The notes: generated from the sequence alone by a model not told the origin. Positions 7,829-62,233 are shown, counted from the stretch's first letter. The stretch: 64,000 nt of DNA from an uncultured Gammaproteobacteria bacterium (GCA_964391315.1 CAYMJR010000001.1:5949-69948); one strand, 5' to 3'. Translations and numbers: made by a program.

Positions 7829-8317
7829 TCATTTTTTCTGAGGATGGACGATCAACACAGGACATGAAGCATATCTCACGACATAATCCGTCACAGAACC
7901 AAGCAATACTCTTTCTAGACCTGAAGTCCCATGGGTTGCCATAATGATAAGATCTGCTTTGACATTGTTTGCAGCATCAACAATTTCCTCTTCAGGTACA
8001 CCTTCGGCAACTTCTGTTTCGACGGCTCCTGCACCGGCATCCTCAAATTGCTGTTTTACTTTTTCCAAATATTCCTTTGCTCCTTTTTTATTAAACTCTG
8101 AAATCGCGACAGCCGTTGTCGGTGTCATTGCAACAGGTGCAGTCAAATTTGTTGATGGAGCAGCTGCCGTTGCTTGTCCAACTACTTCAGATACCGAAAA
8201 AAGCAATATGTGAGCGTTGAAGTTTTTTGCGAGAAGCACAGCATGAGGAAACGCCTCTGATGCAAAGTCTGAACCATCAGTTGTGACCAGAATATTCTGA
8301 TACTTGATTTCTTTCAT
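7829..8317 (-). CDS. universal stress protein (UspA family)
   Basis: NILVTTDGSDFASEA at the N-terminus. ATP-binding-type C-terminal motif MATHGTSGLERVLLGSVTDYVVRYASCPVLIV. Confidence 0.85.
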   Translation of the reverse strand: MKEIKYQNILVTTDGSDFASEAFPHAVLLAKNFNAHILLFSVSEVVGQATAAAPSTNLTAPVAMTPTTAVAISEFNKKGAKEYLEKVKQQFEDAGAGAVETEVAEGVPEEEIVDAANNVKADLIIMATHGTSGLERVLLGSVTDYVVRYASCPVLIVHPQKK

Positions 8318-8349: not shown

Positions 8350-8655
8350 TCAGTGATCTTGGTCACGTTTTTCAAAACGGTACCAATCCCTGGGATCGTT
8401 GCTTGGCTTTTCATTAGTGTAGAAAAACAGAAGTTTCTCTTCTTCGAATATCCGGAAAAATTCATCCCAGGAGATATCCCGCGTTTGATTTGCTTCACTG
8501 AGCAACTCTTCATCTTTTTTTCCCGGAAAATCCAGCCTAATTCCGACCATATCTCCCCGCGCTTGCGGATGATCAATGATTGCCGGTCTGGCGCTATTTT
8601 CAATCGCCCATTTTTTTATTTCTTTATGATCTGTCGTTCGATATATTCCATCCAT
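8350..8655 (-). CDS. hypothetical protein
   Basis: The track ORF starts with TTG at 8694. The first ATG, at 8655, gives MDGIYRTTDHKEIKKWAIEN... (101 aa, hydrophilic). No family recognised. Confidence 0.5.
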   Translation of the reverse strand: MDGIYRTTDHKEIKKWAIENSARPAIIDHPQARGDMVGIRLDFPGKKDEELLSEANQTRDISWDEFFRIFEEEKLLFFYTNEKPSNDPRDWYRFEKRDQDH

Positions 8656-8762
8656 ACTGCACCATAATAAACTTCTCCTGTAAAGTTTGTACAAACAAAA
8701 CGTAAGAGTGTGCTAAGAAGAAAATGTGTGGTGGCCACCACTTCCCAAAAGTAACTTACACA

Positions 8763-9038
8763 TTACACTGTTGATCTTCTTCCGGTAATTAAGCTCCAGA
8801 TAAAGATCGCAATACATGCTCCAATAACGCCCACAATTATTCCTGAAAAACTTAATCCATTATCAGTTGGAGTTGCCGGTGCAATTGATCCAAATAGCCA
8901 TGTACCGATCCATCCTCCGATAATACCTACGATGATATTGGCAATCCAGCCCATTTGTGCATCAGTTTTCATAATCATTGATGCGATCCATCCGACCAAT
9001 CCAGCCAAAAGTAGTGTAATAATTAAACCCATACTCAT
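8763..9038 (-). CDS. GlsB/YeaQ/YmgE family (transglycosylase-associated) stress membrane protein
   Basis: Gly-rich helices GWIANIIVGIIGGWIGTWLFG. Start ATG 9038 is preceded by AAAGGAGGTGGTA, a strong SD with 5-nt spacing. The track start GTG 9044 lies inside that SD. Confidence 0.85.
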   Translation of the reverse strand: MSMGLIITLLLAGLVGWIASMIMKTDAQMGWIANIIVGIIGGWIGTWLFGSIAPATPTDNGLSFSGIIVGVIGACIAIFIWSLITGRRSTV

Positions 9039-9065
9039 TACCACCTCCTTTCTTTAATCTTGAAA

Positions 9066-9266
9066 CTATTTTCCGTTTCCTTGGTGTACATTTACATCAA
9101 TTTTGTTAGGGATATTCACTTGTGGTGTCCCTCCTGATTGACGAAACATTGGTACGAGATACACAAAAAATATAACTGCGAACACAAGAACAAAAATGAC
9201 TCCCAAAATCAATCCCATTACATTACCTGAATTATCATTTCCGGGATTATTCACAATAGTTGCCAT
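9066..9266 (-). CDS. small single-pass membrane protein
   Basis: 66 aa with one TM helix (GLILGVIFVLVFAVIFFVYLV). Strong SD GGAGGTGA (9273..9280 on plus) lies 7 nt before the ATG. Confidence 0.65.
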   Translation of the reverse strand: MATIVNNPGNDNSGNVMGLILGVIFVLVFAVIFFVYLVPMFRQSGGTPQVNIPNKIDVNVHQGNGK

Positions 9267-9504
9267 TTCGTGTCACCTCCTTCTGTGTTTACCCTCAACT
9301 ATTATTGTAGTGGAGCAAAACAAAAGTTCAGTGAAATATCAGTAAGAAATCAGTAACAACGTCGAGTCTATTATCTCAAAGCTTCGGAGAATAAAGTGTC
9401 TACTAAACGACCCACTTTTTCTTCATATGCAATGGTTTCTCTTTTGGAGTCGGGAGCAACTTTCTTACACGAAAAATATGATTGAAAACTAAAATGAAAA
9501 ACAA

Positions 9505-11413: not shown

Positions 11414-11908
11414 ATGAATAAAACACATCCAATACCAAAAGAACAAGTAATAGTCGATTTTTCATTGAAAGGAGAAAAAAAAGGAGAAGCAAAAGCTTCT
11501 CTTATCAAAAGAATTGAGAAACAAGAGGATGAAGCATTGGGCAATGGTGCTGAAAATACTGCCTCTTTTACAAACAAACTTGTCAATCTTAGTGATCAAC
11601 CTGAAGAAATATTAATGAAAATGAAAACAGTTTTTCCTTTTGATTTTTTCCCGGACAGGATTACGATAGATCCAGTAAAAGTACAAATCATACAAAAATA
11701 CTTTTTTCTTTCTCAAACAGTGAAAACCATTCCGGTAAAAGACATCGTCGACGCTACTGTCGAAACCGGTCCTCTCACTTCAACACTTGAAATAGCAACA
11801 AAGGAAGATGATAAACCAATACGTATATCTTATATACGAACAAAAGATGCGGAAAAAGCAATGAAAATTATTAAAGGACTGATTATTGCACGAAATGAGG
11901 CACAATAA
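11414..11908 (+). CDS. hypothetical protein with bacterial PH-like C-terminal domain
   Basis: C-terminal FPDRITIDPVKVQIIQKYFFLSQTVKTIPVKDIVDATVETGPLTSTLEI resembles the bPH/YdbT-type fold seen again at 41777..42370. Confidence 0.5.
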   Translation: MNKTHPIPKEQVIVDFSLKGEKKGEAKASLIKRIEKQEDEALGNGAENTASFTNKLVNLSDQPEEILMKMKTVFPFDFFPDRITIDPVKVQIIQKYFFLSQTVKTIPVKDIVDATVETGPLTSTLEIATKEDDKPIRISYIRTKDAEKAMKIIKGLIIARNEAQ

Positions 11909-24592: not shown

Positions 24593-25153
24593 ATGACAAA
24601 AAATAGTCAACAAGATGACATGTGTCCAAAATGCGGCTCCCCTCTTGGACCGGTAACTGTCACCAAAACTGGAAAAAAATTACAACGCTGTTCAACAGGA
24701 TCCTGGGATCCAACCACCAGACAAACCGTAGGCTGCGATTATGTAAAATGGCTTGAAGTGGAGCCAGAAGCGCTTGATGAGAAATGCCCTAAATGCGGCA
24801 GCCCACTAATTCTTGCAACAACCCGCTTTGGTAAAAAAATGAAAAAATGTTCAACAGGTGTCTGGAATAAAGACACAAAAAAAGTAGAAGGGTGTGACTA
24901 TGTCGAGTGGATCAATGGAACAACTGAGCCACTTGATGAAGAATGCCCTGAATGCGGCAACAAACTTGTTTTGTTTACCACAAATGCTGGTAAAAAAATG
25001 AAAAAATGTTCAACTGCGGGCTGGGATAGTAAAAAAAGAAAAGCAACTGGCTGCACCTATATTTATTGGCTGAAACCTTCTGAATATCCACAAAAAGAAC
25101 AACAATATGACAGCGGCGGCGAAGAATTTTTACCTCCCGAACCCGAAGAATAA
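24593..25153 (+). CDS. stand-alone protein of three tandem topoisomerase-type C4 zinc ribbons
   Basis: Three 53-54-aa units, each CP(K/E)CG-x(17-18)-KCST-x(13-14)-GC-x-Y-(V/I)-x-W, followed by an acidic tail EEFLPPEPEE. TTGACT-18-TAGTAT lies upstream, with 7 nt to the ATG. Confidence 0.7.
   Translation: MTKNSQQDDMCPKCGSPLGPVTVTKTGKKLQRCSTGSWDPTTRQTVGCDYVKWLEVEPEALDEKCPKCGSPLILATTRFGKKMKKCSTGVWNKDTKKVEGCDYVEWINGTTEPLDEECPECGNKLVLFTTNAGKKMKKCSTAGWDSKKRKATGCTYIYWLKPSEYPQKEQQYDSGGEEFLPPEPEE
24614..25072 (+). repeat. three tandem intragenic repeats of about 160 nt (zinc-ribbon units)
   Basis: Protein-level period of 54 then 53 aa (Cys11, Cys65, Cys118 equivalents). The units are diverged at the DNA level. 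Confidence 0.7.
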
Positions 25154-36427: not shown

Positions 36428-37660
36428 CTATTGTTCAAGCTCTAACTCAAAGACATTCCATCGTTTGAGCGCTTTCGTAAAAGAAAGAATGCCAAAAAGA
36501 TAGCGAAGTAAAACAATTTGCTGAAGTATCCATCCAAAAAATCCTTCAAGATAAATACCATACATTAATTCAGCAACAGCAAACCGCCCTCTGAGTGGAA
36601 CAACATAGCCAAAATGACGATAATGATATGGTTGTACTGCCTCGCCCCGAATAAGCCGAGCGACATTTTCTCCGGCAACAGCTCCCTGCTCTTCTGCAAC
36701 TTGTGCGACATTGGGTATTGGTTTTTGAGTTTTGGGATCGATAAATCCGGCAACATCACCTGCGACAAATACAGTATCAACTCCATCCATTTGCAAATAT
36801 TCATTCACGATCACTTGTCCCCGTTTCGTTACTGGTAAACCTGACTGTGCTGCCAATTGATTGGCTTCTACTCCCCCTGTCCAAATCAATATATGATAAG
36901 GATATTCTTTCCCATTATCTGTATAGACCTTTTCACTATCAACCTTGTTAATATGTCCACCGAAGGCAAATTTTACATTTCCACCTGCCACCCGTTTTTG
37001 AGCAACGTCTGAGACGCGTGTATTCAATTCATTTAGCAACCGATCTGATCCCTGAATAATTGTTATTTCAAGACAATCTTTATCAAGTCCATTTTGTTTT
37101 GCAATTTTATCTTTATACATGAGCAATTCCGCGGCAAGTTCTGTTCCTGCAAATCCGCCCCCGCCAATAATTGCCTGAACTTTTCTCTGGCATTTTCCCT
37201 CTCGGCAACACAACATCTTAATCTTGTCTTTAATTTTGAGTGCATCACGAAGATCTTTTAATCCAACGCTGTGCTGCGCAAGTCCGGGAATTCCCATAAA
37301 AGCAGGCTGACTCCCAACAGCAATAATGAGATAGTCATAGGAAACCTCTTCTTTGTTTTTTAATGCAATGATCTTCCCTTGCGTATCAATTTTCTCAACT
37401 TCACTGCAGACAATCGAAACGCCGGAAGGAAAAATATTTTTGAACGGAATAACAATATCTTTATTAGGAACTTCGGATGTCGCTACTTCATAAAGTGATG
37501 GAGTGAACAAATGATAGGGATGTTTATCAATAAGGGTAATTTTTATTTGGTTCTTGCCAAGTTTTTTCTGGAGGCGAAGTCCTGCTGCAATTCCTGCAAA
37601 CCCACCGCCAAGAATAACAACATGTTTTACTAAGCCAGTTTTCTGACTTTTCTCATCCAT
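36428..37660 (-). CDS. ndh: type II NADH dehydrogenase (NDH-2) family flavoprotein
   Basis: Two dinucleotide folds, VVILGGGFAGIAAG and IGGGGFAGTELAAEL. GDVAG motif. C-terminal amphipathic membrane-association helix. Confidence 0.85.
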   Translation of the reverse strand: MDEKSQKTGLVKHVVILGGGFAGIAAGLRLQKKLGKNQIKITLIDKHPYHLFTPSLYEVATSEVPNKDIVIPFKNIFPSGVSIVCSEVEKIDTQGKIIALKNKEEVSYDYLIIAVGSQPAFMGIPGLAQHSVGLKDLRDALKIKDKIKMLCCREGKCQRKVQAIIGGGGFAGTELAAELLMYKDKIAKQNGLDKDCLEITIIQGSDRLLNELNTRVSDVAQKRVAGGNVKFAFGGHINKVDSEKVYTDNGKEYPYHILIWTGGVEANQLAAQSGLPVTKRGQVIVNEYLQMDGVDTVFVAGDVAGFIDPKTQKPIPNVAQVAEEQGAVAGENVARLIRGEAVQPYHYRHFGYVVPLRGRFAVAELMYGIYLEGFFGWILQQIVLLRYLFGILSFTKALKRWNVFELELEQ

Positions 37661-37707: not shown

Positions 37708-39618
37708 CTAGGCCTCAATCGCTACCTGCAATGGTAAATCGTCTTCTAGAAAATCTGACTCTGACTGCTCTCCCGCTGAAGCTTCTTGCTGCGGTGCAAT
37801 TTCAAAATTTCCTCCCTCCCTCGCTAAACTGATAAGGTCAAGATCACGAAGCAGAAATTCTAAACCTTCATTTTCTCCAATGTTAAGATCCAACCAATCT
37901 TTTATATATGGATGGTAAGGAATGAGGGCAAAAATTGCATCCAAATTAGGTTTCACATACTCTTTTTTCTTTTTATAAATAGACTCAATCAACTCGGAAG
38001 CACTCCGCTCCATCAAAAGCATAAGCTCTCTCGAATTATTCCACTTACCAGGATCTTTGGCAAGAAGTTGTGTGCCAAAATGGAGAATACTGGCAAACCA
38101 CTCTGTCCTATGCGCGCTTTTCTCATCTTTCAAATATGGCAAAACATCAAGTAAACTATTAATCGCTGCATCGGAACCTGTTTCTGTTTGAAGTTGATCA
38201 ATTCTTGTAGAAAGCACTTGTTGTATAAGCTCCTGAGCAAGATCCGGAGTAAGACCCTCAACAATATCCTGAGTAAGGTTCTGGGCCAAATCCGGAGTAA
38301 GATTCTGAGGAAGATCCTTAGAAAATTCCGTCTGATATCTCTCAATGAGATTGATCAACTCATGTAAAGGAGGTGGGTTGTAATCAAAAGAAGCCATAGC
38401 AAATATTTCATACAACAATTGCTTAGGAGTCATTGCTTCAGAAAGCCTTGGTACTGGATTTTCAGGATCGCTCTTCAAAAAGTAGCTATCCAATACGTCA
38501 CGCATACGATCTCCTTCATCAAAAACAAAAGATCTGTCGCGCTCATGCATAGCGAGCCTATTATCCCACAACCGCCCTTGTTGTGTTTCAGTTAACAAAT
38601 TCCATTTTCTATTTAATTCCGCAAATAAATATCGCATAACTGTTGCTCGTTTTTCCGGAGTGGATACATCAAATTCTCTCTTATTTGGACCAATAATCTT
38701 CTGTAAATCCTGATTCACAAGAAGAGCATCAAAATTATCAAGTCCCTGCTCCAGCAGTTGCAATTCTCCTTCATAAGACTTCCTATTACGTTCAGAAAAT
38801 CTGATTAATCTGGGATCTCCTGCTAATACCACGCCTTGACCTCTTCTAAACTTCACAGGAAGAATTGCCTCATCATGTTCCCCAACCTTTACACCACTCG
38901 TTGGACGATCAGTTGGCCCTGGACCATAAACAGGATGATTTGTCCCAATGGCTACCTCTGTTTGTCTATCGTGAGAAAAAAACTTTCCGACTGTGGTAAG
39001 GATTCTCATTGTCCTTGATTGTTCTGTATCTATGTCGGTTACTTGACCCTTAAGCGTACCATGTGCTTCCTCTCTTCTTAATCTCTGTCTTGTCCGCCAA
39101 TTCGGATTAGGAATCAAATATGCAACCATATCTCCAACTCTGTCCAAGTATTTTTCCCCCTCCTCTGCCTCATTAAAGACGAGAGGCACCACCATGTCAT
39201 ATCCTGCTAATTTATCTTCAATAAATCTCTGCGCCTCCGGGCTGACTTGTCCTAAATTAAGATCCATTTTTGCCGTTTGCAACACTGCATCCTTTTCATC
39301 AGTAATGTACATAACCCCGCGTGCAATATACAGATCACCCGCCTTGACAGACCTAAGAGAATCTACTTTATCCAATGATTTAAGAGGTTGTCCGTCATAT
39401 ACATGAGTATCAAAACTTCTTTCTGAACCCAATGCAAGTTCACCAATATTATATTTACCGGGATCTTTTTTTAATTCCTCGTCCATTCCCACAAGTGTCT
39501 GATACATTACCTTTTGTACGTCAGACGGTCTCCTGCGAGTTTCATGGAATCCTAATCGCGGTAAAGTATTTAATCTTCTTCTGCTGTGGGGTTGTACAAC
39601 TTTTGCTTCTGCTGCCAT
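37708..39618 (-). CDS. large orphan protein (636 aa), no recognisable domain
   Basis: Long uninterrupted ORF, hydrophilic. Arg-rich N-terminus (HSRRRLNTLPRLGFHETRRRP). Internal duplicated LTPDLAQ(N/E)L from a 48-nt DNA period at 38233..38301. Acidic C-terminus. Confidence 0.6.
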   Translation of the reverse strand: MAAEAKVVQPHSRRRLNTLPRLGFHETRRRPSDVQKVMYQTLVGMDEELKKDPGKYNIGELALGSERSFDTHVYDGQPLKSLDKVDSLRSVKAGDLYIARGVMYITDEKDAVLQTAKMDLNLGQVSPEAQRFIEDKLAGYDMVVPLVFNEAEEGEKYLDRVGDMVAYLIPNPNWRTRQRLRREEAHGTLKGQVTDIDTEQSRTMRILTTVGKFFSHDRQTEVAIGTNHPVYGPGPTDRPTSGVKVGEHDEAILPVKFRRGQGVVLAGDPRLIRFSERNRKSYEGELQLLEQGLDNFDALLVNQDLQKIIGPNKREFDVSTPEKRATVMRYLFAELNRKWNLLTETQQGRLWDNRLAMHERDRSFVFDEGDRMRDVLDSYFLKSDPENPVPRLSEAMTPKQLLYEIFAMASFDYNPPPLHELINLIERYQTEFSKDLPQNLTPDLAQNLTQDIVEGLTPDLAQELIQQVLSTRIDQLQTETGSDAAINSLLDVLPYLKDEKSAHRTEWFASILHFGTQLLAKDPGKWNNSRELMLLMERSASELIESIYKKKKEYVKPNLDAIFALIPYHPYIKDWLDLNIGENEGLEFLLRDLDLISLAREGGNFEIAPQQEASAGEQSESDFLEDDLPLQVAIEA

Positions 39619-39745
39619 GATGGGTAATTTCTAGCTATTCTGTATGTTGAGAGTACAGCTTGAATGTAAAGCAAGGTATCAGGAAGTAGTAAGAAAGATG
39701 TAACACTACTAAAATGTGTTAGGATTTATGCGGTAAATCTTATCA

Positions 39746-39895
39746 TCATTGTGCTTGAGGTGCTCTCGCAGTTGGTGTTTTAAGAAAAGAATGATGCGTC
39801 TCTGCAATTTTTTTCAGCTGTCTTCCAAGAATGAGTGAAAAAACAGTCAGAGCAAGAAATAAAAAAATAAGAAGACCCAACATCCACCTTCGCAT
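39746..39895 (-). CDS. candidate 49-aa single-pass membrane peptide
   Basis: Below the track cut-off. Sequence MRRWMLGLLIFLFLALTVFSLILGRQLKKIAETHHSFLKTPTARAPQAQ. ATG 39895 lies exactly 6 nt after TATACT (39902..39907, minus). Confidence 0.45.
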   Translation of the reverse strand: MRRWMLGLLIFLFLALTVFSLILGRQLKKIAETHHSFLKTPTARAPQAQ

Positions 39896-39901
39896 AGAGT
39901 T

Positions 39902-39907
39902 AGTATA
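39902..39907 (-). promoter_or_regulatory. -10 box TATACT, 6 nt before ATG 39895
   Basis: Minus strand reads tgtagtatact aactct ATG. Lies 8 nt after the stop of the upstream orphan gene. Confidence 0.4.
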
Positions 39908-39915
39908 CTACATTT

Positions 39916-41424
39916 CTATTCTTCAACTCCTGGAAATAAGTTCACTTCGATTACCTTAGGAGGTAGTTCCCTTGCTTGCTTCTCTAAGGCTGCGTCTAAT
40001 TCTGTTTCAGATCTCATTGTTTCGAATTCTTTTACACCATTGCCTAAATTGGTCCACAAAACTAGGTCGCGCAGCTGATCTACTGTTTCTGGATTTGGAA
40101 ATTGTCTAGTAAGCCAGCTTTCCAAAAGTTCCTGAGTATGACCCCGATCGGTTGCTTCTTCTTGCTGTGTTTTGGTTAAAACGTTAATTGTTATCCTTCC
40201 ATGATCTCGAATAGATGCATGTAAAGAACTAATCATAGTAGCTACCAGTTGATCATCAAATTCAACGGGTATTCTATCTGTCCCTGAATAATGCATGCGG
40301 TGTTCGAGTAAAGTAAAGATTTTTTTCGGTGCTTCCTGTAAAGGCAACAAAGCGAGTCCTCGCATTGCTTGATTTATCATCTGGACATCAATCCAACTAT
40401 CGTGACTATCTGGTATTTTTGAAAGTCTCCCTGCAGCTGCATCAATTGTTGTAGATAAAAAATCGTAAGCATCTTTATCATCGAACTTTTCCTGAATGAG
40501 TCTTGCCATAGCAAGAATTGGAGGGACGTCTGCTTCCTGATCATCTGGTCTCGGTTCCATTTCGATAGCAACTCGATTAAAAAATTCCTTTGCTTCTTCC
40601 TTGGTCCGTGATGCTAATCTGGTATTAAAAGGGTCTACACCACGGTAGTACACACTATCTATAGCTAAAACATCTGCATAATTAATTTCACTGGTAAAAG
40701 GTTCTTGTCCTGCTTTATAATTTTCTCCATTAACACTTTCTCTTAACATTCTTCTTATATGATCTGGTAAATCTGGTTGCGCATCTAAATCGGCAAAAAG
40801 TCTTCGTGCTTCTGCATAATCTTCAGCTATCTGTTCGGGATCTCTGTCAGTATGAGCTCTATTTAGTCGCAATAGATATTCTGATGTATCTGTTCTGTCC
40901 TTCGCTAGTCTCCCTTCCGTATCAACAGAACCAGCTGCAACAGGTCTTCGCTTTCTATCTATCCTATACATTACCGCTTCCGGAACAACTTGTACGGCAT
41001 GTTGTGCTGCAATTCTAGGATCAAGCTCACCTGTAGAAATTTCATGGTCGTATCTCACTTGCAACCCAAAAGTAATACCTTCATAGTTTGCTAATGCCCC
41101 TGCAAGTTTTTTTGTAACTGTTCCTCCATTCAAGACTTCTGTTGGTCCACCTCTTTGTGGGTGAGGGAGAATAATAAGAAGTTCGTCGTCAGGACTAATG
41201 ACAAGAGGACCATGAACTTCAAAAAATACACCTGAGTGAATTGCTGGTCTTTCAGTTCCCTGTCTCATCCATGGCCAATAGAATACTGTATCTCCTTGTT
41301 CTGGAGAAGGAGAAGGGCTATGAAGACCATCGAGACGCATCCTCTGAGGTATTATTTCAGCAGCACCGAGACCATCAGGTCTCCTTTGCTGAACAGTTAC
41401 TGCTTGTCTATTCTCTGGCAACAT
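39916..41424 (-). CDS. large orphan protein (502 aa), no recognisable domain
   Basis: Long ORF, hydrophilic. The N-terminal third looks beta-rich (VFFEVHGPLVISPDDELLIILPHP). The C-terminal two-thirds is helical and acidic. No motif recognised. Confidence 0.6.
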   Translation of the reverse strand: MLPENRQAVTVQQRRPDGLGAAEIIPQRMRLDGLHSPSPSPEQGDTVFYWPWMRQGTERPAIHSGVFFEVHGPLVISPDDELLIILPHPQRGGPTEVLNGGTVTKKLAGALANYEGITFGLQVRYDHEISTGELDPRIAAQHAVQVVPEAVMYRIDRKRRPVAAGSVDTEGRLAKDRTDTSEYLLRLNRAHTDRDPEQIAEDYAEARRLFADLDAQPDLPDHIRRMLRESVNGENYKAGQEPFTSEINYADVLAIDSVYYRGVDPFNTRLASRTKEEAKEFFNRVAIEMEPRPDDQEADVPPILAMARLIQEKFDDKDAYDFLSTTIDAAAGRLSKIPDSHDSWIDVQMINQAMRGLALLPLQEAPKKIFTLLEHRMHYSGTDRIPVEFDDQLVATMISSLHASIRDHGRITINVLTKTQQEEATDRGHTQELLESWLTRQFPNPETVDQLRDLVLWTNLGNGVKEFETMRSETELDAALEKQARELPPKVIEVNLFPGVEE

Positions 41425-41512
41425 ATGATCTAGATCGATACTCTAGCCTTATTCTATCTTAAGTAGACTTATCTTGTCAAGCTCTACAAGAAGTTTTCAA
41501 CAAGCGGAATGA

Positions 41513-41764
41513 TCAATAAATGCGGAAGAGGACAAAAATACAGATACAAACTGCAGTTACAAAGGGAATCCAAATACAGGTTCTCACCATATGATGCACA
41601 TGCTGAGGCGGCTGTATCCCAACTTGGTCACTAGACTTAAGCAGTTTTGAAAGGTAAAGCCAATTATATGCTCCCAAAATTATCACCAGAATCAAACAAA
41701 ATACAAAAGCTACTACTTTGAAAGCATTGAGCAGCAATTCCTGATTTTGTAGAAGTTCAATCAT
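41513..41764 (-). CDS. small two-helix membrane protein
   Basis: 83 aa with two hydrophobic helices (VVAFVFCLILVIILGAY and WIPFVTAVCICIFVLF). Begins 12 nt after the upstream gene. Confidence 0.45.
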   Translation of the reverse strand: MIELLQNQELLLNAFKVVAFVFCLILVIILGAYNWLYLSKLLKSSDQVGIQPPQHVHHMVRTCIWIPFVTAVCICIFVLFRIY

Positions 41765-41776
41765 ATATTTTCTTTT

Positions 41777-42370
41777 TTAATTTTTGGCGAATCCATGTCT
41801 CTCCCGGAACCACATCGGAAAAAGCGGAGCATCTGCTCCATGATCCATCAAACGTTGTGTTAAGAATTTTTCGATTGTCTCCGGCTGCGGAATATCATTA
41901 AAAACAAATTCCTCCTGGTGGGTCGGTCGATCAAAGGTCACGACAATATCACCCATACCGATAAGCTCATGTATAAAACCATTTATTTTAATATCAATCT
42001 CCGTACAATTTACCTTATCCAACAATACATCGTTAACGTTGTATGACGTAAGCGGTGTATACCATACCTCAAGAATTTTTCTCGTCGTCAATATATAAAC
42101 ATGAAAATACCAATCAATAATAACCTTGGCAATCATACTCATACATGCACTCACAAGAAGCAGGGATACGATGATAAAAAGTGAAAGTGAATGGAAGAAA
42201 GAGATAAAGACGAGAAACGCAGTTAAAAGAAGAACTGCGAGCACAAATATTGTAAAAACAATTGGCAAAAAAATCACAAAAGAATGTCGGCGCTGCACTA
42301 AAAGCAATTTCTCTCCGGCCAATGTTAAAAATGTATTCCAATTTCCATTCACAACCATACCATGTTTCAT
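41777..42370 (-). CDS. membrane-flanked bacterial PH domain protein (YdbS/YdbT-like, bPH_2/DUF304)
   Basis: Start ATG 42370 is preceded by GAGAGGAGTATATT. Two TM helices, then WYFHVYILTTRKILEVWYTPL...GDIVVTFDR. Confidence 0.65.
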   Translation of the reverse strand: MKHGMVVNGNWNTFLTLAGEKLLLVQRRHSFVIFLPIVFTIFVLAVLLLTAFLVFISFFHSLSLFIIVSLLLVSACMSMIAKVIIDWYFHVYILTTRKILEVWYTPLTSYNVNDVLLDKVNCTEIDIKINGFIHELIGMGDIVVTFDRPTHQEEFVFNDIPQPETIEKFLTQRLMDHGADAPLFPMWFRERHGFAKN

Positions 42371-42624
42371 AATATACTCCTCTCTTTTCTTGCAGTTTTC
42401 TTTCTTACTTTTGATGATCTTAATACATATTACATTTAGCATGATCCTTTAACGTCAAATTTTTATGTGGAGACAGTAAGAATTCTATAAGAAAACCTCA
42501 GCTTTTAGCCTCAAAAATTGCCTCTTAATGAATCTAGAAAACGTACACTCTTTTTCTTTCTTCTTTTGTTAGTAAATTGCCACTATAAAATAGATAAAAA
42601 AACGCTATAATATCTTTTATCCGA

Positions 42625-44512: not shown

Positions 44513-45064
44513 ATGGGCAAACACGAGAGACCTCATTGGATGAGGCAAAGATGGGATACGATTCGGACTCGCATTGGAAAAAAAAATGACACGTTATTGA
44601 GAAAAGATCCAAGAGAAGAAGAAGTACAACGACTACGGGAACTTGACCTGCCTCCATATATTAGACTTCCAATTCAAGATATACCCAATGTCGCGCTTAG
44701 TTCTCCAGTATGGGAAACAATTTCGGAATACCTCAGAAAAAAAGAAAAATTACCATATCATCTGGGCCAGATGTTTGCTGACGCGACCATAAGTTTTGTT
44801 ACTACAACTCCTGATCATATTGCTGCTATTATTGCACGAGTACCAGAAACTTCGACGCAAGATCCATCTCAAAGACCACTACTTGACCGCTATGCGTTTT
44901 CACCAAAACAAGTGCTTGCCATACATGATAAAGCAAGCAGGGCTATGGAAGCCGGACAACTAACAGAGGTTGATATTACTTTTATCGCCGATCATCCTGA
45001 CTCCCAACAACATCTTATCTGGAGAGATCCAATAATCGTAACTATGAAAACTCCACAATTCTAA
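44513..45064 (+). CDS. orphan hydrophilic protein (183 aa)
   Basis: Arg/Trp-rich N-terminus HERPHWMRQRWDTIRTRIGKK. TATAAT (44496..44501) lies 11 nt upstream. No family recognised. Confidence 0.5.
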   Translation: MGKHERPHWMRQRWDTIRTRIGKKNDTLLRKDPREEEVQRLRELDLPPYIRLPIQDIPNVALSSPVWETISEYLRKKEKLPYHLGQMFADATISFVTTTPDHIAAIIARVPETSTQDPSQRPLLDRYAFSPKQVLAIHDKASRAMEAGQLTEVDITFIADHPDSQQHLIWRDPIIVTMKTPQF

Positions 45065-51031: not shown

Positions 51032-51493
51032 ATGCATCCCTATAAAGAAGCACTGAGAAGAAAAATACCAGCTGATGCGATACCACTCTCAGAGTTTACG
51101 CCAACAGTAAGAGGTTCAACAAAATTTGTCAGAGTTGGTGATGAAATACGAGTCGCTGCAAAAAAGGACCCGATACCTCCACATCCAAACTTAGTATCAG
51201 ATCTTGATGCTCAGATAAGAAGATTAAGAATTGAAGACCCTGCTCAACTTGATGGTGGTACTTTAGAATTTTTTCCTACTGAGAAGGTGTTAAGAATTGA
51301 TGGATCATCTGATAGTTTGGGTTATCCTCTTCCAGAACATACCGAAGATGCACGTAGAATAACAGCAGGCATAATAGAAGCTACGCTCTCTGGATATACT
51401 ATACGTTACGATAATAAATCAATTCCAGGTAACACAATACAAGGTGATTCTGGAGAGGCAGAATATGCATATTTTGATATAACAGAAGACTAA
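51032..51493 (+). CDS. orphan hydrophilic protein (153 aa)
   Basis: No family recognised. The stop TAA shares its last base with the ATG of the HAD gene (TAATG). Confidence 0.5.
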   Translation: MHPYKEALRRKIPADAIPLSEFTPTVRGSTKFVRVGDEIRVAAKKDPIPPHPNLVSDLDAQIRRLRIEDPAQLDGGTLEFFPTEKVLRIDGSSDSLGYPLPEHTEDARRITAGIIEATLSGYTIRYDNKSIPGNTIQGDSGEAEYAYFDITED

Positions 51494-54497: not shown

Positions 54498-56066
54498 TTA
54501 CTTTCTCTGTTTATTACTTCTTACCAATCTTCCAATCTCTTGCAGTTGATACGAAGATAATGTTTCTGTCCCTCTTTTCGGAGATTGAATGAGCAATGTC
54601 CTCAGTTTCCTCAGATCATCATATGTTAAACGTGTCTGCAAATAAAGGATAATATTCCTTATCTTCTTTCTTTGCCGATATACTTCCCATCCTACCATGC
54701 CATTAATGACAGCTTCCTCAGCCTTACGTGATTTTTGTCCATCAACAGCATGCGTGCCTGTACGATAATGACGTAATGGATCAAACGGTTCATACTTTTC
54801 TGCGTTTGGCAAAGTATGTTGAATATTAGGATTGTTTGCCAGAAATCGTGACTTTGCTATTCCCCAAAGATACCAACTTTGACTCCTACTACGTTTATCT
54901 CTTTTAAGTCCAAGGTCCCTCATTACATTTTCCAAAGTCTGTATTGCATGGGCGGCTTTTCCTAACACAAACTCGCGCCCGTACTCTTTCATCATCGCAT
55001 GCAATTCTCGTGCGTAATTATTGACAACCTCTGAACTTATCAATAGATTTGCCTGTCTATCACGGTTTCTTCTAAAAACGTCATTGTATAAAAGTTTTAC
55101 TGCCGCATCTATTTCGCCGCGTGTTATAAGGTGGTATGCTTGAAGTTCTTTTTCAGTTGGTGCAGGATATACTTGAGTAGGTTCTTTTTTCTCTTGTTTC
55201 TTTTCTTCAGGTGTAGTAGTAGTTTTGGTGGGTGGTATATTTTGTGGTTCTGCTTTGCGACCTGCCATTTCCGTAGGCCCAGTCGTTTGTTTAACAACAG
55301 GTGGAGGTTGTGCCTCGGGTGGCGATTCTGCAGAAGGTTCAGCTCTTTTTTGAGCAGCTCCTTCCTCTCCTTCTCCTGGCTCTTGTTTCTGTACTTCTTC
55401 GCTGCTATCTTTTTGAATTTTGTGAAGCAAAGGATGAGTAATTACTTCAATAGTATTTATTTTTTCTCTCGCTTTCCTGATAAATGCATCACTATCTGTT
55501 TTTACATTCTTCACGCCATGGATCAGATGCTCAATTACTTCACTACTTTCATACCCAAATGCATTCCCTAATTGTCTAATAATGTCTTGATTGTTGAGTA
55601 TCTGTTCATGACTTGCTTGGGTTTCAACCTCGCCAACAAATTTAATAATATCGGATTTTTTGTTTAAATACTCTTCATAAAAATCATCTGCAGTCACTGT
55701 GTCAGTAATACCTAGTGTATCCAAAAATGCTTTTCTTTCATTATGTTCTGTATCATTTCGTATTCCATCTAAATAGGTGTTAAATCCATCTCGCCACTGT
55801 GCATAGGTTAGCCCTTTTTCTTGTTGGTAGCGGCTCCGTTGGGTAAGTGATGCCTTTTGGTAGATATTTCCCGCTCGATCATTGATTCCTAAAGCACCAT
55901 TTTCTTGAATAGAATCAAACTGTTTTTTTTTGATTTTCACCTGAGGATTGGAAAGATCTCCTAACAAAAATCGTGCTTGTAATCCAACATTTGCTGCTCC
56001 CAATAATTCTGTGGGCTTTGCACTTTCCTTCTTTATAGGTGACGGTTGTAGTTCTTTAGGATGCAT
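54498..56066 (-). CDS. large orphan protein (522 aa) with central Pro/Glu/Lys/Thr-rich linker
   Basis: Uninterrupted ORF. Helical N-terminal and C-terminal parts are separated by EPGEGEEGAAQKRAEPSAESPPEAQPPPVVKQ...TTTTPEEKKQEKKEP. Basic C-terminus. No family recognised. Confidence 0.6.
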   Translation of the reverse strand: MHPKELQPSPIKKESAKPTELLGAANVGLQARFLLGDLSNPQVKIKKKQFDSIQENGALGINDRAGNIYQKASLTQRSRYQQEKGLTYAQWRDGFNTYLDGIRNDTEHNERKAFLDTLGITDTVTADDFYEEYLNKKSDIIKFVGEVETQASHEQILNNQDIIRQLGNAFGYESSEVIEHLIHGVKNVKTDSDAFIRKAREKINTIEVITHPLLHKIQKDSSEEVQKQEPGEGEEGAAQKRAEPSAESPPEAQPPPVVKQTTGPTEMAGRKAEPQNIPPTKTTTTPEEKKQEKKEPTQVYPAPTEKELQAYHLITRGEIDAAVKLLYNDVFRRNRDRQANLLISSEVVNNYARELHAMMKEYGREFVLGKAAHAIQTLENVMRDLGLKRDKRSRSQSWYLWGIAKSRFLANNPNIQHTLPNAEKYEPFDPLRHYRTGTHAVDGQKSRKAEEAVINGMVGWEVYRQRKKIRNIILYLQTRLTYDDLRKLRTLLIQSPKRGTETLSSYQLQEIGRLVRSNKQRK

Positions 56067-61604: not shown

Positions 61605-61633
61605 TTTTGTAAGAAAAAATTTTGTCTTTCCAC

Positions 61634-62233
61634 ATGGATTTTGTTACCTTTTCACCTACTATGAGCAAATCAGAACTGTATATTCCCAGACGTCGTCGGC
61701 CAGTTCATGATCTGCTGTCTAGAGGACAAGAAGATCGCGACAAACATCCTATCGTTGCATATCTTGAACAGGATAGCAGATGGCATGATTTATCTCGCTC
61801 TCCTCATTCCCGCTATCTTCAATTTCGTGTGCTTGATACTGCAATGCAAATTCATCTTATGTCGAAAGATCAAGTTGATGCTAAAATAACTGAACTTGAT
61901 AACGAAATTCTTTTTAGTCCTTATCTAAATACTCTCAGCCAAAAACGAGGAACATTACGGGAACAACATGAGGAAATGGTTGAAATTTCTACAATTATGT
62001 TAGACGATGCTCACCTGTTAGAAGGTTTAGGTATACCTCCAGAAGGGTCCTATCTCATTCCCTATCTTTTCACGCAAATTCATCTCGCTGAAAGAGCTCT
62101 GGGAAGAAAAATAGAAAAAGATAGAGAAATTGCCTGGACTACAGAAAAAGGATTTGCAGATCCAGCAGTAGACGTAGCAATCGAGCTCTGTATGGCAGCA
62201 GTTCGCGATATTCCTTCGACAGATATCTACTGA
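61634..62233 (+). CDS. orphan hydrophilic protein; start uncertain
   Basis: The track ORF starts at TTG 61622. ATGs at 61634 and 61661 (MSKSELYIPRRRRPVHD...). Arg-rich N-terminus, helical remainder. No family recognised. Confidence 0.5.
   Translation: MDFVTFSPTMSKSELYIPRRRRPVHDLLSRGQEDRDKHPIVAYLEQDSRWHDLSRSPHSRYLQFRVLDTAMQIHLMSKDQVDAKITELDNEILFSPYLNTLSQKRGTLREQHEEMVEISTIMLDDAHLLEGLGIPPEGSYLIPYLFTQIHLAERALGRKIEKDREIAWTTEKGFADPAVDVAIELCMAAVRDIPSTDIY

Follow-up and report, generated by a model that had tools for sequence, protein, structure and literature searches.

TPR-like scaffold proteins, GSDH-type dehydrogenases (PF07995), bPH membrane proteins and the orphan protein families of uncultured bacteria are the described systems that come closest to a run of five genes in a 64-kb stretch of DNA from an uncultured Gammaproteobacteria bacterium (GCA_964391315.1 CAYMJR010000001.1:5949-69948; 64,000 nucleotides, hereafter the window). 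The run comprises genes for a membrane protein (p221), a small membrane protein of 83 amino acids (p83), a soluble protein of 502 amino acids (p502), an open reading frame (ORF) of 49 codons (p49) and a soluble protein of 636 amino acids (p636). TPR-like scaffolds are represented here by the designed protein PDB 4y6w with its 42-residue repeats of the TPR_10/TPR_12 type. GSDH-type proteins are built around a beta-propeller. The bPH proteins, such as YdbS/YdbT (bPH_2 PF03703, bPH_3 PF14470), carry an N-terminal hydrophobic block in front of a compact soluble domain of about 100 residues. Orphan families have few members and no annotated domain, and they diverge fast.

The two large proteins resemble the last group most closely: their family, too, is small, lacks annotated domains and diverges several times faster than its surroundings. 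It differs from such families in a stable chromosomal position, an ancient duplication and conserved promoter and operator DNA. In our reading, to which we give a probability of roughly 0.55, p502 and p636 are an anciently duplicated tandem pair of an undescribed family that is restricted to a small group of uncultured bacteria. If this is true, two "unrelated orphans" become one definable, DUF-grade family with a domain model. Such a family would be undescribed but of a commonplace kind, as lineage-restricted hypothetical proteins are very common in uncultured bacteria. We found no evidence for a new mechanism or system in the p502/p636 region.

Six distant relatives were found by an exhaustive HMMER search of 1.84 billion representatives, with p502 and p636 concatenated as the query. 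The relatives of p636 are P0007 (595 aa, E=1e-90), P0008 (618 aa, E=7e-79), and P0009 and P0010, which are fragments or short forms. The relatives of p502 are P0011 (640 aa, E=1.8e-11) and P0012 (499 aa, E=2.2e-4), the latter being the positional ortholog of p502 in a related locus, L020. These sequences come from groundwater and other metagenomes. A word-seeded search of 5.8 billion clusters with p502 and p636 returned the queries only, and a search of the same kind with a profile of seven sequences from both groups combined (alignment A4) also missed all six relatives. Since word-seeded searching misses true relatives, its "only self" result is not a proof of singleton status for fast-evolving proteins. 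A metagenome scan with a pattern of the p636 family found nothing, and a scan with P0011 found only its already known contig. There are about eight detectable family members among roughly 15 billion proteins, and they come from few metagenome projects. Copies of p502 and p636 themselves are found in a single NCBI contig and in Logan assemblies from a small number of runs; they are identical save one variant.

The two groups are linked through P0011. This protein was found via p502, and it shares N-terminal and central motifs of the p636 group; the hidden Markov model (HMM) of the p636 group gives it 19.4 bits, versus 5.4 bits for the best of 3,000 shuffles. A comparison of the p502 group with the p636 group by hhalign gave E=1.3e-3 over 192 co-linear columns. 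The combined alignment A4 is co-linear from a shared MAxE start to a C-terminal motif of the LLRDL type. The combined HMM matches a 321-aa protein of locus L011 with 36.4 bits over its C-domain, versus 12.0 and 1.6 bits for the single-group HMMs. As far as sequence comparison can tell, and with moderate confidence, p502 and p636 are ancient tandem paralogs of one family. Neither the single sequences nor the family HMMs detected a paralog in the window beyond this pair.

Family members begin with a variable N-terminus that is often rich in Arg; a beta-rich N-domain follows, and after it comes an all-helical C-domain of about 330 aa (about 350 aa in p636). The N-domain is about 280 aa long in the p636 type and 155-180 aa long in p502 and P0012, with about 155 aa in p502; it is absent from the L011 321-aa protein and from P0009. 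The alignments A3, A6 (ten sequences) and A7 serve as the domain model. In A6 the shared C-domain motifs are (R)YLFAEL/RxLFxxL, (A)MTP/RT, PPxLxxM..LI, Q/ExF, DAxxxL, R..QLR, LPYL/GLxxLP, W and LLRDL, and in A4 the invariant positions are M1, E4, P31, F432, L476, L496, L532, L543, W575 and L590. Positions conserved across both paralog groups are nearly all hydrophobic, and no catalytic-type motif is found among them. This agrees with the first-pass annotation of the window, which had recognised no motif in the large proteins: p502 and p636 are without a match in Pfam, NCBIfam (E<=1) or PDB sequences, and neither has a clear profile match to a known family with an ordinary function.

The MAxE start, encoded by ATG-GCA-nnA-GAA, is present in p636, its 607-aa ortholog in L020, P0008, P0009, P0011 and P0012. 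P0007 (MPLE) and p502 (MLPE) have near-matches, and the L011 321-aa protein lacks it. We observed that both paralog groups open with nearly the same 12 nucleotides (39618-39607 and 41424-41413 in the window), with conservation extending to the third codon positions. This common gene start may be an initiation element for mRNAs without a Shine-Dalgarno (SD) motif, or a conserved N-terminal peptide.

A search of the PDB with whole-family, C-domain and N-domain profiles gave nothing significant save 4y6w. One 42-residue hairpin of the C-domain, PPxLxxMxGLIxDYQxxF...DAAxxLLQxVLxxREEQLRTG at about residues 415-478 of p636, aligns with every repeat of this structure, and the conserved positions of the family are hydrophobic, as in binding scaffolds. 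The family differs from TPR scaffolds in that a single hairpin is matched, not a tandem array, and in that its beta-rich N-domain has no counterpart there. The match indicates a TPR-like helix-turn-helix element in the C-domain, not membership of the TPR family. The residue range given for the hairpin includes an insertion of 24 residues, which sits in its turn and is encoded by a tandem repeat. The insertion exists only in the p636 of this genome and is absent from the other members in alignments A1, A4 and A6. A duplicated LTPDLAQ(N/E)L element had been described in this place with a DNA period of 48 nt. The duplication is real, and the 48-nt period is a double unit: according to TRF the base period is 24 nt. 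The coordinates of all these features are collected in Table 1.

Table 1 Features of the p502/p636 region and of the gene cluster that follows a second copy of the p636 upstream motif
Feature	Position in the window	Strand	Description
p221	41777-42442; probable true start 42370	minus	ORF, membrane protein
p83	41513-41764	minus	ORF, small membrane protein, 12 nt 3' of p221
p502-type promoter/operator-like region	41427-41480	minus	conserved hexamers and palindrome
p502	39916-41424	minus	ORF; shorter paralog, soluble, acidic, Arg-rich
GSDH -10-type element ATGTAGTATACT	39902-39913	minus	12-mer conserved in L020 and L011
GSDH gene relic	39709-39895	minus	includes p49 ORF (39746-39895) and last ~17 GSDH codons
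p636-type conserved upstream region	39619-39706	minus	kept in five lineages
p636	37708-39618	minus	ORF; longer paralog, soluble, acidic
p636 tandem repeat	38226-38317	minus	TRF; in frame, 24-nt unit, 3.8 copies
66-aa transmembrane protein	9066-9266	minus	first gene after second motif copy
Transgly_assoc (YeaQ/GlsB-type) protein	8763-9044	minus	second motif-copy cluster
114-aa ORF	8350-8694	minus	second motif-copy cluster
universal stress protein (Usp)	7829-8317	minus	second motif-copy cluster

ORFs of 502 and 636 codons in a genome of 39% GC, with native codon usage and with homologs in at least five lineages, argue that both are real genes. Their synonymous codon usage and their GC content at third codon positions (GC3) are native to the window, and the order GC1>GC2>GC3 is that of the neighbours. 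The opposite explanation is that the large ORFs are non-functional, being either chance ORFs or decaying pseudogenes. It could appeal to the lack of known domains, very low conservation, the absence of an SD motif and poor AlphaFold2 (AF2) models. Indeed, the single-sequence AF2 models have a mean pLDDT of 35 for p636 and 38 for p502 and are unusable, hence no fold search was made; the C-domain is all helical in them, with low confidence. On the other side, ORFs of such length would hardly arise by chance in so AT-rich a genome, several lineages have full-length homologs with conserved motifs and promoters, the absence of SD motifs is normal in this genome, and codon usage and the GC order match the neighbours. 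This explanation is practically refuted, and we regard it as extremely improbable.

Both proteins are strongly acidic, with a net charge of -27 for p502 and -26 for p636, and according to hydropathy neither has a transmembrane (TM) segment or a signal peptide. The whole family is acidic (net -17 to -37), the L011 321-aa protein excepted. No exported or membrane member was found by this simple hydropathy test, which is not a trained predictor: the maximal 19-residue Kyte-Doolittle mean is 0.5-1.4, and none is above the threshold. Family members prefer Arg over Lys (e.g., 44 R vs 5 K) in genomes of 40-44% GC; the ratio R/(R+K) of p502 is 0.72. With +6/-9 and +1/-5, the two window proteins do have the Arg-rich starts and acidic tails noted at first pass; across the family these features are kept only loosely. 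As for the envelope-related or interaction role suggested at the same time, we found no evidence for it, and against it only the absence of export signals.

Related genomes do carry these genes together. In L020, which comes from a close relative, the order is the p221 homolog, the p83 homolog, P0012, a gene for a 380-aa GSDH and the 607-aa p636 ortholog. L011-L014 have the gene of the 321-aa protein, GSDH, a 293-aa gene and P0008; L009 and L010 have GSDH, a 153-aa gene, P0007 and NDH-2, which is 62% identical to the NDH-2 of the window; L021 has GSDH, P0009 and DUF1801. The content of the slot after GSDH and before the p636-type gene thus varies: nothing in L020, the 153-aa gene in L009 (L009:1048-1509, an Arg-rich protein) and the 293-aa gene in L011 (L011:3394-4275, a protein with a Tat-like RRTLL signal). 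Neither of these two slot proteins has a Pfam match.

In the window all five genes of the run are present in the six-frame ORF list, consecutive and on the minus strand, and the genes for NDH-2 (36428-37660), a PAS histidine kinase and two receivers follow directly on the same strand, as the first-pass annotation had it. Its proposal that five unrelated orphans form one system is not borne out. The large proteins appear to be paralogous, p49 is a relic, p221 and p83 go with the pair in the closest relative only, and the adjacency to NDH-2 is variable, being kept in L009 and not in L011, L020 or L021. Among GTDB species representatives, the closest NDH-2 to that of the window is 59% identical and belongs to a Gammaproteobacteria metagenome-assembled genome (L006), which has neither the module nor shared synteny.

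Between the window and L020 the flanking genes are well conserved: identity is 85% for the MOFRL glycerate kinase, 81% for the FAD-linked oxidase, 81% for DoxX and 78% for the C-half of transketolase (TktC). It is 63% for p83 and 59% for p221, and falls to 37% for p636 versus the 607-aa ortholog and to 27% for p502 versus P0012. The same holds in other pairs: for L020 and L011, identity is 70% between the GSDH proteins and 43% between the p636 homologs; for L009 and L011 the corresponding values are 83% and 45%. Judging by these identities, in every lineage the p502/p636 family diverges at several times the pace of its neighbours, and this explains its apparent singleton status in word-seeded searches. 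The region is a clear example of this imbalance, with the proteins at 27-37% identity, the neighbouring genes still at about 80% and the family's own promoters at about 70%.

The gene order also explains p49. The first-pass annotation took it for an unannotated single-pass peptide of the module; it is not a new component but a remnant of a deleted GSDH-type dehydrogenase gene. In L020 and L011 the p49 slot is filled by a GSDH gene, which in L020 matches PF07995 at E=2e-85; in L009 and L021 GSDH precedes the p636-type gene. The N-terminus of p49, MRRWMLGLLIFLFLALTVFSLILGRQLKKI, corresponds to the start of the L020 GSDH membrane anchor, MSKWVAGLLIFLFLILGAFSVVMGKKIKEI. Identity of p49 to the GSDH N-terminus is 41% over 49 aa for L011 and 44% over 45 columns for L020. 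The last ~17 GSDH codons survive at 39760-39709, where an insertion of 1 nt produces TGA-TGA-TAA. DNA alignment of both ends places a deletion of about 320 beta-propeller codons between them, so that p49 fuses the N-terminal anchor and linker to the 3' end of GSDH. The homology between the p49 locus and GSDH thus covers ~45 codons at the 5' end and ~17 at the 3' end, and the promoter element of the two is identical; the locus differs in having no beta-propeller and a broken frame. There is no PF07995 match in p49, and only 297 nt separate p502 and p636.

Before the start of the reading frame, the 12-mer ATGTAGTATACT is identical and in the same position relative to the GSDH start in the window, L020 and L011, and it has a single exact copy in the window. 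Within it lies the TATACT box that had been ascribed to p49 as its own. The box is present (39907-39902, 6 nt before the ATG), but it is the promoter of GSDH, and such boxes are the norm in this genome. On these alignments, the p49 region descends from a GSDH gene; p49 itself cannot work as a dehydrogenase and is at most a residual membrane-anchor peptide. An apparent novel micropeptide would thereby be explained as a gene relic. Separately, TGTAGTATACT was considered as a repeated genomic motif and rejected, having 17 matches vs 11.9 expected.

The window p636 is also the outlier of its family, with 33-38% identity to the other members vs 39-52% among the others. In Tajima relative-rate tests, which presume that the window and L020 are sister lineages, the window p636 has 129 unique substitutions and its L020 ortholog 46 when P0007 is the outgroup (p=3.5e-10); the counts are 104 and 58 when P0008 takes that place (p=3e-4). 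A control pair gave 82 vs 62, which is not significant. The rate asymmetry of p636, the deletion of GSDH and the insertion of the repeat fit altered selection after the loss of GSDH. One strain of another sequencing project, L022 (SRR12266074), differs from the window at 2 of 17,505 nt. Both differences are non-synonymous and fall in the adjacent p636 codons 208-209 (window positions 38993 and 38997; TT to SK). These clustered substitutions are suggestive and anecdotal, and could be either real or an assembly artefact.

These data bear on an alternative in which p502 and p636 were accessory or regulatory partners of an exported GSDH that has been lost here, with the pair now drifting under relaxed or altered selection. 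Both L020 and L011 show the order [p502-type]-[GSDH]-[p636-type]; in L009 and L021 GSDH directly precedes the p636-type gene or is separated from it by one gene. GSDH is missing only from the window lineage, which has the family's outlying p636, with its asymmetric rate (the control being not significant), a repeat insertion of its own and the only two strain differences in 17.5 kb, both of them non-synonymous. Nevertheless, both ORFs are intact in the window and their promoters are conserved there, and GSDH and the two paralogs each have a promoter of their own. A cytoplasmic protein has no obvious route to an extracytoplasmic enzyme. Moreover, were the window lineage the outgroup, tree shape could account for the rate asymmetry, and related genomes can share synteny by descent. 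We consider this partnership unlikely.

The same divergence could be attributed to diversifying selection on non-classically secreted effectors or partner-interaction proteins, e.g., of a symbiotic or predatory bacterium. Such proteins could show the extreme divergence relative to the flanks, the orphan status against 15 billion proteins, termini that are conserved only loosely (MAxE at the start, an amphipathic peptide at the C-terminus) and the non-synonymous nature of the sole strain differences. A marginal match of the N-terminal region to Cif (E=0.04-0.07) points the same way; it is not significant, and a Cif effector identity was rejected. Against an effector role, neither a signal peptide nor a TM segment is found in p502 and p636, and no secretion-system component was recognised among the window proteins that were scanned or read, not all 56 genes having been profile-scanned. 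The gene content (NDH-2, transketolases, aldolase, two-component systems) resembles that of a free-living aerobe or microaerophile, the conserved positions look like a buried hydrophobic core, and there is no link to phages, plasmids or defence. An effector role is in our view distinctly unlikely.

Upstream DNA of the two large genes is conserved as well. Before p502 we found TTGACA (41480-41475), a spacer of 18 nt, TAGAAT (41456-41451) and the palindrome GATCTAGATC (41436-41427). This is the best promoter match in the region (11/12). The hexamers and the core of the palindrome are conserved in four lineages (the window, L020, L011 and L015/P0011). Among the window, L020 and L011 the promoter core is 70-74% identical, whereas the encoded proteins are about 27% identical. 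The window has no further good copy of the palindrome.

Before p636 the arrangement is GTTACatctTTCTTAC (39704-39689), 33 nt, TACTCT (39655-39650), about 31 nt and the ATG-GCA-nnA-GAA start. The upstream motif (G)TTACnnnnTTCTTAC and the box TAnTCT are kept in five lineages (the window, L020, L011, L009 and L021). The motif is direct-repeat-like and occurs once per related locus, always at the same position. A -35 hexamer at proper spacing is absent. The combination of a -10 box lacking a -35 hexamer with an upstream motif suggests an activator-type promoter layout for p636. A reading of the p636 leader as an RNA structure was rejected, as RNAalifold predicted 0 pairs.

The stable chromosomal position of the family, its ancient duplication and promoter and operator DNA that is better conserved than the proteins argue for a maintained, regulated function and not for transient ORFs. 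The conserved DNA would also offer a direct experimental handle on the regulation of p502 and p636. The p636 motif has a second exact copy in the window, GTTACnnnnTTCTTAC (extended TGTTACnnnTTTCTTACT), at 9342-9357 on the minus strand, with ~0.01 expected by chance. It stands 32 nt upstream of a TACAAT box, vs the 33-nt spacing at p636, and precedes the cluster with the YeaQ/GlsB-type and Usp genes listed in Table 1. The same motif before this cluster is a hint that p636 shares a regulator with stress-type genes; p636 may thus belong to a stress-type regulon.

A -10-like box directly before the start codon, as at p49, is usual in this genome. Among the 56 gene starts scored in the window, 29 have a -10-like box (at least 5/6 match to TATAAT) 3-13 nt before the start codon, versus 7.8% of random positions, and only four have an SD-like motif. 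Leaderless or short-leader mRNAs with one promoter per gene therefore seem to predominate, to judge from these start regions. As most genes of the window look leaderless with promoters of their own, co-directional genes need not be co-transcribed. Each large gene has its own conserved promoter, so the co-direction of p502 and p636 is no evidence for an operon.

The palindromic operator-like site, together with the fast evolution and the variable slot between GSDH and the p636-type gene, might also be expected if the region were a remnant of a mobile element, prophage or defence island, with the large proteins as defence or anti-defence factors. However, PHROGs and PADLOC profiles gave no match to p502 or p636 (best E>0.05), and tblastn found no matches to them in annotated phage and plasmid records. 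No integrase, transposase or tRNA lies nearby; GC content, GC3 and codon usage are native; and the position between housekeeping genes is stable across lineages. This possibility is largely refuted and appears very improbable to us.

Several points weigh against our preferred reading of p502 and p636 as a duplicated pair of one undescribed family, or against what may be built on it. The hhalign probability between the two groups is only 18.7%, so that paralogy depends on P0011 as the connecting member and on co-linearity. The likeness to 4y6w amounts to 8-10 bits per repeat, its summed E=5e-5 stems from the repetitiveness of the target, and no Pfam TPR model matches any of the seven A4 members at E<=1. 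The hint at a regulon comes from a single second copy of the motif in 64 kb. The lineages that carry the family are all related, so their gene order may reflect shared descent and not functional coupling. Finally, any functional role of the pair is read from the sequences.

With respect to such a role, p502 and p636 would, very tentatively, be binding or scaffold proteins without enzymatic activity, each under its own regulation and acting in the cytoplasm, and their original role may have been connected with GSDH. A more speculative extension, which we think improbable, makes them the cytoplasmic part of an undescribed regulated system that is coupled to an extracytoplasmic propeller protein of the GSDH type, in a lineage that uses mostly leaderless mRNAs. 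One example, equally much of a long shot, would be a module that senses stress or partners, its fast-evolving TPR-like adaptors recognising variable targets and its operator and activator sites defining a new regulon.

Outside the window, the upstream genes p221 and p83 stand next to the pair in L020 alone; L011 has another membrane protein upstream, in divergent orientation. Hence p221 and p83 are not demonstrably part of the p502/p636 unit. According to hydropathy, residues 27-89 of p221 form a hydrophobic block, and a soluble domain of about 100 aa comes after it; bPH membrane proteins share this general layout. The earlier assignment of p221 as a bPH protein is not supported: neither p221 nor its L020 homolog matches PF03703 or PF14470 at E<=10, and a two-sequence profile of p221 found no match in the PDB. 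A 164-aa protein encoded at 11414-11908 on the plus strand served as a positive control and is a genuine bPH protein (bPH_3 E=4e-5, bPH_2 E=0.01). The probable true start of p221 is the ATG at 42370 rather than 42442, to which the ORF extends. It has a strong SD motif (AGAGGAG) and gives a protein of 197 aa, and the L020 homolog of 198 aa begins at the equivalent residue. The protein p83 has hydrophobic segments at residues 8-42 and 58-83 and a homolog at the same position in L020 (L020:9648-9899); it has no family match in Pfam or NCBIfam.

Elsewhere in the window there are three more family-less, hydrophilic orphans that prefer Arg over Lys, all on the plus strand: p183 (44513-45064), p153 (51032-51493) and p203 (61622-62233). 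Their R/(R+K) ratio is 0.62-0.67 vs about 0.15-0.5 in other genes, and their GC3 is native. No relatedness of these proteins to p502 and p636 or to one another was detectable. A positional homolog of p183 exists in L020, with only 37% identity. The minus-strand gene at 54498-56066 encodes a family-less hydrophilic protein of 522 aa with a central linker rich in Pro, Glu and Thr; its sole match is a sub-threshold one to Dynamin_N (E=0.004, 17.6 bits vs a cutoff of 27). On the plus strand, 24593-25153 encodes a 186-aa protein in which three units CPxCGxxL...CS...C.Y..W can be seen by eye, resembling the C4 zinc fingers of the topoisomerase type.

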